From: a virus
Lineage: Duplodnaviria; Heunggongvirae; Uroviricota; Caudoviricetes
Direction: 5' to 3' (one strand)
DNA: 5,852 bases
Virus record (IMG/VR): IMGVR_UViG_2698536408_000010
Each line of letters starts with the position of its first letter. The stretch's first letter is position 1. The notes below the pieces were generated by a model. The model was not told the DNA's origin, made no database searches, and worked only from the letters and a program-made list of their open reading frames with translations. The position numbers and the translations under genes were made by a program. Shown one piece after another: positions 1-5,852 of the stretch.

Positions 1-2
1 TC

Positions 3-417
3 CAGTATCCGGATGGTAAGCCGCCGGTATGGGCAAAGTGTACGAAAGGTGTGTATCCGTCTTACTGGGAAGAATGGAAAAAAGTCAGGGAGGTGGTAAA
101 AGTTGCCTGTCCGGAGTGTGGCGGAAAGGGTGAGGTTTCCACCGCCTGTAAGGATTGCCGTGGGCGTGGTGTCGCCATTCATCGTGAAGAGTCGGTAAAA
201 CGTGGTATGCCTGTTATCAGAGACTGCCAGCGTTGTGGTGGTCGTGGCTATGAAAGACTACCATCAACGGAGGCATTTAATGCTATATGCGAGGTGACAA
301 ACCAGATAACACGCGCGTCATGGGAAAAAACAGTTAAGAAATTCTATGATGCGCTGGTGACTCGGTTTGATATTGAAGAAGCATGGGCTGAGCGGCAGTT
401 AAAAAAGGTAACTAGGT
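3..417 (+). CDS. Cys-rich zinc-finger protein with three CxxCxGxG (DnaJ-type) motifs; partial (open at window start, 3' end lost in N run); positional candidate for lambdoid late antiterminator Q
   Basis: The frame is open from nt 3 with no upstream stop, so the ORF is 5'-truncated. Translation contains ACPECGGKG, CKDCRGRG and CQRCGGRG. It is followed by an intrinsic terminator, then a methyltransferase and a tRNA-Ile/tRNA-Arg cluster, as downstream of Q in Stx-type phages. The tail after the N run (GRFMPDVRR...) reads through the terminator and is not counted. Confidence 0.5.
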
Positions 418-459
418 NNNNNNNNNNNNNNNNNNNNNNNNNNNNNNNNNNNNNNNNNN
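418..459. other. Assembly gap or masked bases (42 N)
   Basis: Run of n characters; hides the 3' end of the first ORF and any promoter immediately downstream. Confidence 0.95.
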
Positions 460-497
460 ATGGGCGTTTTATGCCTGACGTTAGAAGAGTTTCTACA

Positions 498-520
498 ACC
501 CGCCGCCGAGCGGGTTTTTT
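498..520 (+). terminator. Rho-independent terminator (stem acccgc/gcgggt, 6-nt loop, T6 tract)
   Basis: Perfect 6-bp GC-rich stem 498-503/510-515 followed by tttttt (515-520). Confidence 0.7.
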
Positions 521-640
521 ATGACTGAAATCGCGTCAGTACAGTAAACGCGCTGGTGGCGGTGAATACCTGTCTTTCAGCTTGCTGGCTTTTTCGACAA
601 GAGTTATTGGTGTGTCACGTTAACCGGAAAAGGAAAAGAC

Positions 641-838
641 ATGCTAAAACAGCAGGATATGACAGAAACCGCCAGAGTGGTGTTTAATGAATTAAGCGTT
701 ACCGAACCGGCGACAGTCGGGGAGATAGCGCAGAATACTTACCTTTCACGCGAACGCTGCCAGTTAATACTGACCCAGCTGGTTATGGCGGGTCTGGCAG
801 ACTATCAGTTCGGTTGTTACAGACGCCTTCCGCAGTGA
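641..838 (+). CDS. Small (65 aa) hypothetical protein with predicted helix-turn-helix-like segment
   Basis: ATG at 641 preceded by aaggaaaag (SD-like) 6 nt upstream; segment ATVGEIAQNTYLSRERCQLILTQLVMAGL resembles an HTH/winged-helix; stop codon lies inside a terminator hairpin. Confidence 0.6.
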   Translation: MLKQQDMTETARVVFNELSVTEPATVGEIAQNTYLSRERCQLILTQLVMAGLADYQFGCYRRLPQ

Positions 839-848
839 AGGCTTTTTT
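825..848 (+). terminator. Rho-independent terminator overlapping the stop codon of the 65-aa ORF
   Basis: Stem gccttc (825-830) / gaaggc (837-842), loop cgcagt, followed by tttttt (843-848). Confidence 0.65.
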
Positions 849-865
849 ATTTGTGGTAAATGGGC

Positions 866-896
866 GGCTGGTGGGTGTTAGGGGCACCCACCAGCC
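866..896 (+). other. Perfect 12-bp GC-rich stem-loop without U tract
   Basis: ggctggtgggtg (866-877) pairs with cacccaccagcc (885-896), 7-nt loop ttagggg; no T run on either strand. Confidence 0.5.
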
Positions 897-988
897 ATCT
901 GCTCATGCGTTGGGTTCACAAGCAAACCTCAGGCCCACTGCTTTGCGCAAAAGCAGAATGAGCCTATCAGAGACAGGCTTAATGATCC

Positions 989-2047
989 ATGCTTAATACT
1001 GTAAAAATATCCAGTTGTGAGTTAATCAACGCCGACTGCCTGGAATTTATCCGGTCGTTACCCGAAAATTCTGTTGACCTGATAGTCACGGACCCGCCGT
1101 ACTTTAAAGTGAAGCCTGAGGGCTGGGATAACCAGTGGAAGGGCGACGATGATTACCTGAAGTGGCTGGACCAGTGTCTGGCGCAGTTCTGGCGGGTGCT
1201 GAAACCTGCCGGAAGTCTTTACCTGTTCTGTGGTCATCGCCTGGCATCTGATATCGAAATCATGATGCGTGAACGCTTCAGTGTGCTGAACCATATTATC
1301 TGGGCGAAGCCGTCCGGACGCTGGAACGGATGCAACAAGGAAAGCCTGCGGGCGTATTTCCCCGCCACAGAGCGCATTCTGTTCGCGGAACATTATCAGG
1401 GGCCGTATCGTCCGAAAGATGCCGGGTATGCGGCGAAGGGCAGTGCACTGAAACAGCATGTGATGGCCCCGCTGATTTCTTACTTTCGTGATGCGCGAGC
1501 TGCCCTGGGGATAACGGCAAAACAGATTGCAGATGCCACAGGAAAGAAAAACATGGTGTCGCACTGGTTCAGTGCCGGTCAGTGGCAGTTGCCGAATGAA
1601 AGCGATTATCTGAAATTACAGGCGCTGTTTGCCCGGGTGGCAGAAGAGAAGCATCGGCGTGGTGAACTGGAAAAGCTCCACCACCAGCTGGTGGATACGT
1701 ATACCTCACTGAACCGGCAGTATGCGGAGCTGCTGAGTGAATATAAACATCTGCGGCGGTATTTTGGCGTGACGGTGCAGGTGCCGTATACCGATGTGTG
1801 GACGCATAAACCGGTGCAGTTCTATCCCGGGAAACATCCGTGCGAAAAACCGGCAGAAATGCTGCAGCAGATAATCAGCGCTAGCAGTCGTCCGGGTGAC
1901 CTGATTGCAGATTTTTTCATGGGGTTGGGTTCGACAGTGAAAGCGGCACTGGCGCTCGGGCGTCGTGCAATTGGCGTTGAGCTGGAGACTGAACGTTTTG
2001 AGCAGACGGTTCGGGAAGTACAGGATTTAGTCAGCCAGAACGGATGA
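989..2047 (+). CDS. Beta-class (motif IV before motif I) N6-adenine DNA methyltransferase, CcrM/HinfI-like, apparently orphan
   Basis: DPPY motif at aa 35-38 (nt 1091-1102) after NADCLEF...LPENSVDLIVTDPPY; C-terminal HPCEKPAEMLQQIISASSRPGDLIADFFMGLGST (HPxxKP plus FxGxG AdoMet motif I). 352-aa ORF. Start codon uncertain (weak SD before ATG 989). No restriction endonuclease gene nearby. Confidence 0.85.
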   Translation: MLNTVKISSCELINADCLEFIRSLPENSVDLIVTDPPYFKVKPEGWDNQWKGDDDYLKWLDQCLAQFWRVLKPAGSLYLFCGHRLASDIEIMMRERFSVLNHIIWAKPSGRWNGCNKESLRAYFPATERILFAEHYQGPYRPKDAGYAAKGSALKQHVMAPLISYFRDARAALGITAKQIADATGKKNMVSHWFSAGQWQLPNESDYLKLQALFARVAEEKHRRGELEKLHHQLVDTYTSLNRQYAELLSEYKHLRRYFGVTVQVPYTDVWTHKPVQFYPGKHPCEKPAEMLQQIISASSRPGDLIADFFMGLGSTVKAALALGRRAIGVELETERFEQTVREVQDLVSQNG

Positions 2048-2087: not shown

Positions 2088-2163
2088 GGCCCTTTAGCTC
2101 AGTGGTGAGAGCGAGCGACTCATAATCGCCAGGTCGCTGGTTCAAATCCAGCAAGGGCCACCA
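2088..2163 (+). tRNA. ileZ: tRNA-Ile2 (anticodon CAU, lysidine type; ileX/ileZ-like), 76 nt with encoded CCA
   Basis: Cloverleaf: acceptor GGCCCTT/AAGGGCC, D-arm GCTC..GAGC, anticodon loop CTCATAA, T-loop TTCAAAT, 3' ACCA. Close to E. coli ileX as recalled from memory. Met versus Ile2 cannot be distinguished from the anticodon alone. Confidence 0.85.
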
Positions 2164-2263
2164 TCACAAACCGCCATTAGCTTATCAGGAAGAGCAGACG
2201 ACACGATAACAGGGTTGTTGGTGCGGGGGCGGGTCCCCGATGGCGGTCCATTATCGGTATTCA

Positions 2264-2340
2264 GCGTTGTTAGCTCAGCCGGACAGAGCAATTGCCTTCT
2301 AAGCAATCGGTCACTGGTTCGAATCCAGTACAACGCGCCA
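2264..2340 (+). tRNA. tRNA-Arg (anticodon UCU, reads AGA/AGG), 77 nt with encoded CCA
   Basis: Acceptor GCGTTGT/ACAACGC, D-arm GCTC..GAGC, anticodon stem ATTGC/GCAAT with loop CTTCTAA, T-loop TTCGAAT, discriminator G then CCA. Confidence 0.88.
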
Positions 2341-2598: not shown

Positions 2599-2827
2599 CT
2601 GTGCCGGATACATCACAGTTTCTGGAACCTTAGGTACTACAGTATCAGTCAGGGTGCTATATTTTCAGATGTGATGAAAGCCTGTCAGCAGGCAGGGCGT
2701 ATCGGAAATGACCCAGTAGAGAAAACGTTGACTCAGATACCGGTGCTGAGTTACCGGGAAACCGGCATCACATGACCGCTATCCTGAGGTGTACTGGCAA
2801 TAGCGGACACTACCATTTGTTCTTTTT

Positions 2828-3646
2828 TTAAGCAGCCATCTGATGATATTTTTCCCTGAAGGCTGCCGGGGAGATATTCCCCAGACGAGAGTGACGACGC
2901 TGACGATTGTAGAAAATCTCAATGTATTCCCGTATTACTGAGATGGCTTCATCCCGGTTATTAAAACGATAGTGGCTCAGGCTCTCATTTTTCAGCGTTC
3001 CCCAGAAGCTTTCCATCGGAGCGTTGTCGTAACAGTTACCTTTACGCGACATTGATGTTTTCAGACCAGACTGCTCCTGTATGACCCGGTAATCGTATGC
3101 GCAGTACTGTGAACCTCGATCAGAGTGGTGGATTAGCCCGGCAGGTGGGCGCTGGCTCCTGAGCGCCATAAACAGGGCTTTACCTGTCAGCTCTTTTGTC
3201 ATGCGCTCTCCCATGGCGTAGCCGACAATTTCGCACGTATAAACATCTTTGATGCCAGCGAGGTACAACCATCCCTCCTGTGTGGCAACATACGTCAGGT
3301 CCGCCACCCAGACCTGATTTGGTGCTGTAGGAGCGAACGTCTGGTTCAGCAGATTTGGCGCAACTGGCAGATTGTGGTTCGAGTTCGTAGTCGCTCTGAA
3401 CTTGCGTTTCTGCTTACAGCGTAGCCTTAGCTCCTTACGAAGACGTGCCAGTCGGTCACGACCAACGATGATGCCATTCTCTGCCAGCTCCGTCTGGAGC
3501 CGCCGGGTTCCATATGTTTCGCGAGTGCGGATATGTGCCACCTTAATCTCCAGTTTTAGCCGCTCATCACTTTGTTTTCTGTCTGAGGGTTCATGCTGTA
3601 CCCAGTTGTAATAACCGCTCCTGGATACACCAAATACCTGACACAT
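2828..3646 (-). CDS. IS3-family transposase OrfB (DDE integrase catalytic domain); in vivo made as OrfAB by -1 frameshift
   Basis: 272-aa ORF with HHSDRGSQY, MSRKGNCYDNAPMESFW and YNRQRRHSRLGNISP motifs typical of IS3-family OrfB. The frame stays open upstream to the slippery site near 3727-3733. Confidence 0.9.
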   Translation of the reverse strand: MCQVFGVSRSGYYNWVQHEPSDRKQSDERLKLEIKVAHIRTRETYGTRRLQTELAENGIIVGRDRLARLRKELRLRCKQKRKFRATTNSNHNLPVAPNLLNQTFAPTAPNQVWVADLTYVATQEGWLYLAGIKDVYTCEIVGYAMGERMTKELTGKALFMALRSQRPPAGLIHHSDRGSQYCAYDYRVIQEQSGLKTSMSRKGNCYDNAPMESFWGTLKNESLSHYRFNNRDEAISVIREYIEIFYNRQRRHSRLGNISPAAFREKYHQMAA

Positions 3647-3681
3647 CGCTTCAATGGGAAATTGTTGTCGCCATTGTTCGA

Positions 3682-3912
3682 TTAACGCGTATTTTTCAGC
3701 GACTCCTGTGCAAAATACGCTGTTGCTTTTTTTAATATATCTCGCTCAAGGCGAGCTTCATTTAACGCCTTACGCAGTTGCAGAATTTCAGATTCCAGTT
3801 CAGCCACCGTGCGGGAACCAGGAGTACCGAGCCCTTTTCTGGCGGCGGTAACCCATTGTCCTAAAGTGCCTTCAGGAAGAGATAATCGGGAAGCGCCTTC
3901 ACTGATCGAAAG
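3682..3912 (-). CDS. IS3-family transposase OrfA (HTH/leucine-zipper part), N-terminus lost in N run
   Basis: Translation ...TVAELESEILQLRKALNEARLERDILKKATAYFAQESLKNTR resembles IS911-type OrfA C-terminus. The tracked ORF extends through the Ns into antisense tRNA sequence, which is artefactual. Confidence 0.75.
   Translation of the reverse strand, partial: LSISEGASRLSLPEGTLGQWVTAARKGLGTPGSRTVAELESEILQLRKALNEARLERDILKKATAYFAQESLKNTR
3727..3733 (-). other. Programmed -1 ribosomal frameshift heptamer A_AAA_AAA linking OrfA and OrfB
   Basis: Seven T on + strand (seven A on coding strand) in the OrfA frame within ...DILKKATAYF; shifting -1 here joins onto ...LIEQWRQQFPIEAMCQVFGVSRSGYYNW. Confidence 0.6.
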
Positions 3913-3923
3913 NNNNNNNNNNN
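3913..3923. other. Assembly gap or masked bases (11 N)
   Basis: Run of n; IS sequence on one side, tRNA-flanking sequence on the other, so true adjacency is unknown. Confidence 0.95.
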
Positions 3924-3929
3924 GCTCCC

Positions 3930-4005
3930 GGCCCTTTAGCTCAGTGGTGAGAGCGAGCGACTCATAATCGCCAGGTCGCTGGTTCAAATCCAGCAAGGGC
4001 CACCA
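3930..4005 (+). tRNA. ileZ: tRNA-Ile2 (CAU), second copy, identical to 2088-2163
   Basis: Same 76-nt sequence as copy 1, including 6 nt of upstream flank (gctccc). Confidence 0.85.
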
Positions 4006-4105
4006 TCACAAACCGCCATTAGCTTATCAGGAAGAGCAGACGACACGATAACAGGGTTGTTGGTGCGGGGGCGGGTCCCCGATGGCGGTCCATTATCGGT
4101 ATTCA

Positions 4106-4182
4106 GCGTTGTTAGCTCAGCCGGACAGAGCAATTGCCTTCTAAGCAATCGGTCACTGGTTCGAATCCAGTACAGCGCGCCA
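4106..4182 (+). tRNA. tRNA-Arg (UCU), second copy, one substitution in acceptor stem
   Basis: Identical to 2264-2340 except A to G at 4175 (versus 2333), making a U4-G69 wobble; downstream flank differs and has no terminator. Confidence 0.85.
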
Positions 4183-4292
4183 TATTCATTCTTCCAGATT
4201 CCTTCCGGCAGAGCCTTATACTGAAATATACCTGGCTCAGGATATTGTTGAAAATATTTTATGTTTGTCAAAAATAAAAGTTCTGTTAAGTA

Positions 4293-4646
4293 TTGATTGA
4301 GTGTTTGTTATACGGTCTAATGGTTTTTTCAGCATTAAATATTTATCATTCATATGGTGTGGGTAGAGTGAATATTGATGAGGCGTCGGGGTGTTTCATC
4401 CTTAGGCAGCGTATTGATATAGTCAATGCAGCACGAGCAAAGGCCTTCAGCCGTTTGACAGTTTTGTTCTGTACTCCTGATCGTCTTTCGGGAAGAGACG
4501 TTATTATTCTGAATAGTGATGCTATACAGAGGGTTTGCGATGAGTTCATGGTTGCTAATTCAGAATTATTTGCTCTTGTTCAGGAGTACAACAGAATAGC
4601 CAGGACCTGTGGTATGGATGAACTTCGGATTACTCATCTGGGGTAG
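4293..4646 (+). CDS. Hypothetical protein (up to 117 aa), AT-rich cargo gene rich in AGA/AGG/ATA codons
   Basis: A 354-nt open frame in AT-rich DNA is unlikely by chance. 6 of 11 Arg codons are AGA/AGG and 3 Ile codons are ATA. Start is uncertain (TTG 4293, ATG 4320 or GTG 4367) and no clear SD is present. No family recognised. Confidence 0.45.
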   Translation: MIECLLYGLMVFSALNIYHSYGVGRVNIDEASGCFILRQRIDIVNAARAKAFSRLTVLFCTPDRLSGRDVIILNSDAIQRVCDEFMVANSELFALVQEYNRIARTCGMDELRITHLG

Positions 4647-4813: not shown

Positions 4814-4835
4814 CCGGGTATCAGTTAGCGGGAGA

Positions 4836-5060
4836 AATTTTTAAATACTTCACAATTCAGGCGGTTGACTGTTGTCTGGTTTGCGGGGAGTTTGTTAAAA
4901 GAAACTGGCATGGTGAATCCCCCTGTGCGGAGGGGCAATCAGCGAGTAGGTATATGGGATAATCGCGGATTCAGGTGCTGGTACTGAATTCACCGGGAGG
5001 CACCCGGCACCATGCAATGGCACATAGCGCCACTCTCCAGCCCCTCTCCGGAGGGGCTGT
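4836..5060 (+). repeat. R2: ~220-bp structured noncoding module, copy 2 (near-identical to 2376-2598)
   Basis: Same module as R1 with TTGACT in place of TTGACA and one extra C in the terminal hairpin (7-bp stem gcccctc/gaggggc, 5040-5057). Confidence 0.75.
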
Positions 5061-5076
5061 TTATATTGATTTTGTC
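5040..5076 (+). terminator. Terminator-like hairpin at the end of R2
   Basis: 7-bp GC stem with tccg loop followed by tgtttatattgattttg (T-rich but interrupted). Confidence 0.5.
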
Positions 5077-5689: not shown

Positions 5690-5816
5690 ATGGCATTTAA
5701 ACACTATGATGTTGTCAGGGCGGCGCCGCCGTCAGATCTTGCGGAAAAGCTGACACATAAACTGAAAGAGGGCTGGCAGCCGTTTGGTAGTCCGGTGGCC
5801 ATAACCCCTTATACCC
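5690..5816 (+). CDS. N-terminal 42 codons of a small lambdoid-prophage protein (MAFKHYDVVRAAPPSDLAEKL..., possibly DUF1737-like), interrupted by IS end
   Basis: ATG 5690 with ggtggaaag SD-like sequence 6 nt upstream. The frame runs without a stop into the IS terminal sequence starting at 5817. The family assignment is from memory and tentative. Confidence 0.55.
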
Positions 5817-5852
5817 TGAGGTGTACTGGCAATAGCGGACACTACCATTTGT
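5817..5852 (-). mobile_element. IS3-family terminal end (second copy of the end seen at 2785-2820), continues beyond window
   Basis: 36 nt identical to 2785-2820 (tgaggtgtactggcaatagcggacactaccatttgt), same orientation. Confidence 0.8.

Follow-up and report, generated by a model that had tools for sequence, protein, structure and literature searches.

The 3' half of a probable Q-lambda-family late-gene regulator with additional cysteine motifs in its predicted zinc-binding arm

The 5,852-nt stretch of DNA analysed here (the window; Caudoviricetes virus record IMGVR_UViG_2698536408_000010) opens inside a reading frame that encodes three CxxCxGxG motifs, and beyond a run of N it continues into a terminator, a methyltransferase gene and tRNAs. 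A sequence-only reading took this frame to be a candidate antiterminator Q, noted the resemblance of its motifs to the DnaJ cysteine-rich domain, and left open whether it was a distinct type of Q or some other zinc-binding regulator. What kind of protein, then, carries these motifs, and what part do they play in it? We answer the first question, with a probability of roughly 0.93, as follows: window positions 3-417 are the 3' half of a gene for a Q-lambda-family protein Q, which regulates prophage late genes. The gene is an ordinary and common one, already annotated as 'antitermination protein', and its identity is already known.

3-417, plus strand: Q-lambda-family antitermination protein, C-terminal 138 codons (residues 136-273 of 273 aa), identified by PF03589, PDB lambda Q and DNA identity.
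418-459, plus strand: N run of 42 nt with masked bases, its content predicted from the matching 45 nt of relatives.

Reading frame +3 contains no stop between the window edge (nt 3) and nt 417. In every relative the protein ends in ...LKKVTR followed by TAA, which maps to window positions 418-420, inside the N run, and the coding region, earlier drawn to 520, is shortened to that stop. An ORF called at 51-524 is an artefact in which the N run was translated through. The window begins at about codon 136 of the 273-codon gene, the 5' half of which lies outside it.

Family membership is supported at several levels. Profile comparison with Q families and the DnaJ cysteine-rich domain had been proposed as a check on the candidate, and it places the fragment far above the cut-off for the Pfam family PF03589 'Antitermination protein Q' (E=9.5e-32, 109.4 bits; curated cut-off 26.7 bits) and below that for the DnaJ model. 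A full-length relative scores higher still against PF03589 (E=6e-55, 183.7 bits), and the PHROG family phrog_127 'anti-termination protein Q-like' covers the full length at E=3.7e-111. The lambda Q entries 7UBJ, 4MO1 and 7UBM are by far the top PDB sequence matches (E~1e-16), aligning with the last 100 residues of the fragment end to end, and the full-length protein is 40% identical to lambda Q. The protein has the Q-lambda fold, a four-helix-bundle body with a helix-turn-helix plus a zinc-ribbon arm. Full-length relatives and lambda Q also keep an N-terminal MxLE..K..SPKSP...TDVMAA segment, outside the window, and the C-terminal L..VTR (window nt 403-417) is kept as in lambda Q; in lambda Q the conserved N- and C-terminal segments are the nozzle-forming parts (PMC9388147). 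Two findings had been named as grounds for abandoning the Q assignment, homology to a non-Q family and a separate intact Q gene upstream. The homology found is to Q-lambda itself, and the genes upstream in relatives are DUF968 and rusA, with no second Q among them. The DUF968/ydfU gene is also named 'antitermination protein Q' in phage mEp460_ev081 (LR597641 1165-2214), a misnomer.

At the DNA level, the fragment is 99.8% identical to the gene for WP_000762889.1, 'antitermination protein'. Its 138 codons run without a stop or frameshift, and the apparent sole change relative to the common allele is synonymous (ACT vs ACC). Among 5,426 complete E. coli genomes, 2,475 carry DNA at least 80% identical to window positions 1-417, and in 1,168 complete E. 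coli genome records the identity is at least 99%, with the annotation 'antitermination protein' (WP_000762889.1). The Q gene of phage mEp460_ev081 shows 99% DNA identity, and quuQ, which lies upstream of stx2AB in the Stx2a phage Stx2_EH1910, shows 91%. With tblastn, homologues were found in 249 phage genome records, among them phi80, ES18, mEp237, Stx2c phages, lambda and P22, where all are annotated as Q or a late regulator. For homologues, the precomputed Pfam annotation also lists PF27659.1. In the searched literature we found no experiments on this Q allele and nothing relevant on quuQ/ydfT. A word-indexed homologue search with the window fragment returned mostly partial proteins; an exhaustive search of representatives was more useful and is the basis of the family counts below.

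The motifs that prompted the DnaJ comparison lie in the first part of the fragment.

108-131, plus strand: CPECGGKG, cysteine motif 2 (C172/C175), with no counterpart in lambda Q; predicted half of an extra zinc site.
147-170, plus strand: CKDCRGRG, cysteine motif 3 (C184/C187), aligning with CRDCHGTG (C118/C121) of lambda Q, the first knuckle of the arm.
225-248, plus strand: CQRCGGRG, cysteine motif 4 (C210/C213), aligning with CGRCKGVG (C144/C147) of lambda Q, the second knuckle of the arm.

A further motif, motif 1 (CPCCYGEK), occupies residues 117-124 of full-length relatives, upstream of the window. The earlier claim of three genuine repeats holds: frame +3 contains exactly three, no CxxCxGxG occurs in the other frames of the 5,852-nt window, and homologues show no variation at the Cys and Gly residues of the last two. 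When the 138-aa fragment was shuffled 200,000 times with its composition preserved, only 508 of the products contained even one CxxCxGxG; since shuffling so rarely yields the motif, the repeats are real and not a chance pattern.

Alignment with lambda Q assigns two of these motifs a probable role. The four Cys ligands of lambda Q (C118, C121, C144 and C147) align with C184, C187, C210 and C213, with an identical 26-residue spacing, and the codons for these lambda-type ligands fall at window nt 147-158 and 225-236. Residues 114-152 of lambda Q form a zinc-ribbon 'arm' that spans both cysteine motifs (PMC9388147). Motifs 3 and 4 correspond, by this alignment, to the single zinc site of lambda. 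What remains is a 66-residue insertion relative to lambda Q, which follows the body helix ending ...DY.RSAAS, precedes the first lambda-type knuckle and bears motifs 1 and 2. An AlphaFold2 (AF2) model made from a 51-sequence alignment places a long beta-hairpin between these two motifs (P0001 residues 76-87 and 110-121); a first run on a 16-sequence alignment was discarded (pLDDT 64.5, arm <55). Motifs 1 and 2 probably form a second zinc site flanking this hairpin.

The insertion, the three CxxCxGxG in the window and the four cysteine motifs of the full protein, along with a Pfam DnaJ_CXXCXGXG score of 32.2 bits on the fragment, just under the 32.7-bit cut-off, are what could be cited for a distinct type of Q, not recognised before and marked by zinc-finger repeats of the DnaJ kind. 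We consider such a type very improbable. The protein scores far above the Q-lambda family threshold and has the Q-lambda fold, and two of its motifs are already present, aligned, in lambda Q itself; a distinct Q or a different zinc-binding regulator is not supported. The extended form is also that of the family majority, and it is annotated as Q in phi80, ES18, mEp237 and Stx2c phages.

The CxxCxGxG zinc knuckle, in several repeats, is nonetheless common to the present Q, the DnaJ domain PF00684 and anti-TRAP, and one could suppose that this zinc protein is of their kind and works as a chaperone or protein-binding regulator rather than as a transcription factor. Weak matches in this direction do exist, namely TIGR02349 DnaJ_bact (27.9 bits) and anti-TRAP NF058604 (21.4 bits) among profiles, anti-TRAP (E=0.011) and DnaJA3 (E=0.19) in the PDB, and DnaJA2 by Foldseek (E=0.28), and one Q homologue, P0023, was named 'DnaJ-class molecular chaperone' by JGI. 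The respective cut-offs of 377.2 bits (TIGR02349) and 65 bits (NF058604) lie far above these scores, and the PF00684 scores of 32.2 bits (fragment) and 28.4 bits (full protein) both fall below 32.7. The anti-TRAP match is 25 residues long and covers motifs 2-3 only, as against an anti-TRAP protein of roughly 53 aa. No J-domain family was reported in the Pfam or NCBIfam results. Similarity spans the cysteine motifs alone, and the remainder of the protein is the Q-lambda helical body; the DnaJ resemblance is thus one of motifs and does not amount to membership in that family, the JGI name is taken to be a misnomer caused by the cysteine motifs, and a protein of the DnaJ or anti-TRAP kind is in our view scarcely credible.

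Returning to the Q-lambda reading, we can ask how common the extended arm is among its relatives. The Q-lambda family is small: when 1.84 billion representatives were searched exhaustively, 150 clusters matched at E<=0.001. Among the 57 full-length-like family representatives, 37 carry the motif 2-3-4 block, and motif 1 is also present in 32 of these 37; the lambda-type block with its single pair of motifs occurs in only 4. The extended form is therefore the majority form and that of lambda a reduced one, and the structural point to be drawn is a modest one: textbook lambda Q is a minority, shortened form, and most members of its family carry four Cys pairs. In 23 extended-form representatives motif 3 reads CxC, not CxxC.

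Spacing between the motifs offers some indication of how they pair. Across family representatives the distance from the first Cys of motif 1 to that of motif 2 varies from 14 to 60 residues, and the corresponding distance from motif 3 to motif 4 is nearly fixed at 23-26 residues. In DnaJ, zinc pairing is interleaved, 1+4 and 2+3. The variable 1-2 spacing, the fixed 3-4 spacing and the modelled hairpin lead us to infer two sequential zinc sites in the extended Q proteins, probably paired 1+2 and 3+4, unlike those of DnaJ. A comparison of the two halves of the arm with each other gave weak support for a tandem duplication (E=0.002, from a single comparison). We tentatively propose, at clearly less than even odds, that the extended arm is a second zinc ribbon at the junction of body and arm, made of motifs 1 and 2 with the long, variable beta-hairpin between them, that it represents the ancestral or majority state from which lambda and P22 Q are reduced, and that it makes extra contacts with DNA or RNA polymerase. 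If the second ribbon is as proposed, the loading complex of extended Q proteins would differ from the lambda paradigm. PDB searches returned no solved structure of the extended form, all strong matches being lambda Q, and in the searched literature we found no study of it.

The gene's 3' flank bears on its function as directly as the protein does, and it contains the following features.

460-496, plus strand: start of the pR' leader, where 'AT' would complete the sigma-dependent pause element AACGAT and precedes GGG, the order seen in lambda; the leader beyond is unstructured or only weakly structured; assigned from the lambda pR' alignment and folding.
497-522, plus strand: tR' intrinsic terminator with a 7-bp G+C-rich stem, a 6-nt loop and a T6 run; assigned from folding and conserved in relatives.

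In lambda pR' the spacer contains the Q-binding element, and AACGAT, at +1 to +6, acts as the sigma-dependent pause element. The proposal that a promoter is hidden in the N run is borne out in relatives, whose corresponding 45 nt contain the stop codon of Q (TAA), a pR' -35 element TTGATT, a 16-nt spacer and an extended -10 element TGgTAAATT, and end with the first 4 nt of AACGAT. Of the predicted pause element the window itself shows only the final two bases, together with the GGG (460-464). The N run measures 42 nt as against 45 nt between the same flanks in all relatives, which reflects either a true 3-nt difference or a mask that does not preserve length. Written out, the relatives' cassette is TTGATT-16-TAAATT-6 nt-AACGATGGG with a terminator after it, and lambda pR' is TTGACT-17-TAAATT-6 nt-AACGATGGG, likewise followed by a terminator. 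The relatives' spacer differs in sequence from that of lambda and is 16 nt long rather than 17, and by analogy it would occupy the position of lambda's Q-binding element.

The terminator tR' lies about 60-65 nt from the predicted start site, giving a terminated leader of ~65 nt here compared with the 194-nt 6S RNA of lambda. The pR' leader does not fold significantly better than shuffled sequences (z=-1.45), and only its terminator hairpin is meaningful. No Rfam family matched within window positions 1-2000, and the pR' leader is therefore not a curated RNA family. Mosaic joints are found on either side of tR', just past the T run in some relatives and just before the terminator stem in a qO111-type phage. 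Because the joints flank tR', Q together with pR' behaves as one exchangeable module.

The earlier proposal of a Q gene followed by pR' and tR' is thus upheld by the Q-lambda homology and by the cassette and gene order of relatives. With family membership, fold, gene order and the relatives' promoter and terminator anatomy all established by comparison, the window Q would, by analogy with lambda Q, act as an antiterminator in the following way. It would bind a Q-binding element (QBE) between the -35 and -10 elements of pR', just downstream of its own gene, using both its zinc-ribbon 'arm', in which the CxxCxGxG motifs would serve as zinc ligands, and the helix-turn-helix in its four-helix 'body'. 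[quoted passage not shown] Polymerase so modified would pass tR' (497-522) and go on to transcribe the 65-aa ORF, the methyltransferase gene and the tRNAs, and in relatives stx2 or lysis genes. Binding to the QBE, engagement of paused polymerase and the NusA nozzle have been described for lambda Q (PMC9388147), and the framework of Q-binding element and pause loading is likewise drawn from that work (PMC9388147).

Comparison with known Q systems places the present gene among a set of close and more distant counterparts. From lambda Q (PDB 4MO1, 7UBJ-7UBN), a member of the same family, it differs by two more Cys pairs and the long beta-hairpin. The Q genes of phi80 (gp17), ES18, mEp237, mEp460 and Stx2c phages share its four Cys pairs and an FTNK..YP.GKPP.W insertion, with motif 3 of phi80 Q being the CxC variant; as proteins they are 39-54% identical to it and their promoter spacers differ, as is expected for phage-specific Q/QBE pairs. 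The annotation of phi80 also shows the same compact layout, with pR', a Q-binding site and a terminator close by. Nearest of all are quuQ of Stx2_EH1910 and the WP_000762889.1 genes of E. coli prophages and mEp460_ev081, which are essentially the same gene (91-99.8% DNA identity) within the same Q-pR'-tR' cassette. Since an allele 91% identical to the present one precedes stx2 in at least one Stx2a phage, the Q/pR' pair is one possible switch for Shiga toxin and can control its expression.

The Q21-family (PF06530) and Q82-family (PF06323) antiterminators share the regulatory role and gene position of the present Q, and they belong to protein families unrelated to Q-lambda (PMC9388147); the window protein matched neither model in the Pfam search. 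We also considered the 'qO111' Stx q type and set it aside: the Q of phage LC567841 is 126 aa long and presumably of another family, and DNA is shared only from the tR' stem onward, with LC567841 positions 1501-2007 being 93% identical to the window from 497 on. In such qO111-type Stx2a phages the same terminator and downstream module is combined with different Q/pR' modules.

Beyond the terminator, the window continues with the genes that would be transcribed under Q control.

641-838, plus strand: 65-aa ORF of PHROG family phrog_331, the first gene past tR', 'hypothetical protein' in relatives.
989-2047, plus strand: DNA methyltransferase (N6_N4_Mtase; PF01555, E=7.9e-42; PHROG DNA methyltransferase) in the predicted Q-dependent late transcription unit.
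2088-2340, plus strand: tRNA(CAT) at 2088-2163 and tRNA-Arg(TCT) at 2264-2340, which precede stx or lysis genes in related prophages.

In relatives the genes run DUF968-rusA-Q-[pR'-tR']-65-aa ORF-methyltransferase-tRNAs, followed by stx2AB or by nanS-holin-lysozyme-Rz. In Stx2_EH1910 the block of hypothetical gene, methylase and tRNAs leads into stx2AB, whereas in the window the tRNAs are followed by the small RNA STnc100 and an IS element, with no stx. Further features of these genes may be recorded. The 65-aa ORF (641-838) shows weak winged-helix similarity (TrmB/MarR, E 0.003-0.04), and a terminator-like hairpin at 825-842 belongs to it. The methyltransferase (989-2047) has an insert of roughly 100 residues between its halves, with a weak HTH_3 match at residues 167-195. 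The tRNA(CAT) of relatives is given as tRNA-Ile in the RefSeq annotation.

The state of the downstream DNA raises the question of whether this Q-lambda gene still has anything to regulate. It could be an intact-looking but functionless remnant in a decayed or cryptic prophage, unexpressed or without lysis or structural genes to switch, and past the tRNAs there are an IS3-family transposase, an ORF cut by IS ends, second copies of the tRNA and STnc100 blocks, and N-run joins. Among the E. coli relatives, several prophages are plainly degraded, their holin and tail genes being truncated. We regard a functionless remnant as unlikely, if a good deal less so than either of the zinc-protein alternatives above, given 138 uninterrupted codons with an apparent single synonymous change from the common allele and an intact pR'-tR' flank, 65-aa ORF, methyltransferase gene and tRNAs. 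It is, moreover, a statement about the state of the gene in one genome and not about its identity as a Q-lambda-family regulator. The prophage may be rearranged and possibly defective, or the sequence may be a scaffold.

The distal part of the window shows further repeats. A 272-nt block with tRNA(CAT) and tRNA-Arg(TCT) is duplicated at 98% identity (2082-2353 and 3924-4195), the second copy starting right past an 11-nt N run (3913-3923) that suggests a scaffold join or a second prophage. The sRNA STnc100 (RF02076) is likewise present in two plus-strand copies (2417-2606 and 4879-5068; 124 and 132 bits), which sit in a 94%-identical direct repeat (2363-2581 and 4825-5043), each downstream of a tRNA block. 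A plus-strand ORF of 117 aa (4293-4646; phrog_2873, E=4e-70), with no function assigned, lies downstream of the second tRNA block. The IS3-family insertion sequence occupies 2780-3912 on the minus strand, with transposase orfB at 2828-3646 (NF033516, E=1e-99) and an orfA part interrupted by an N run, and a 41-nt IS end is repeated at 5812-5852, where it truncates a small phage ORF that begins at 5690 (phrog_2036).
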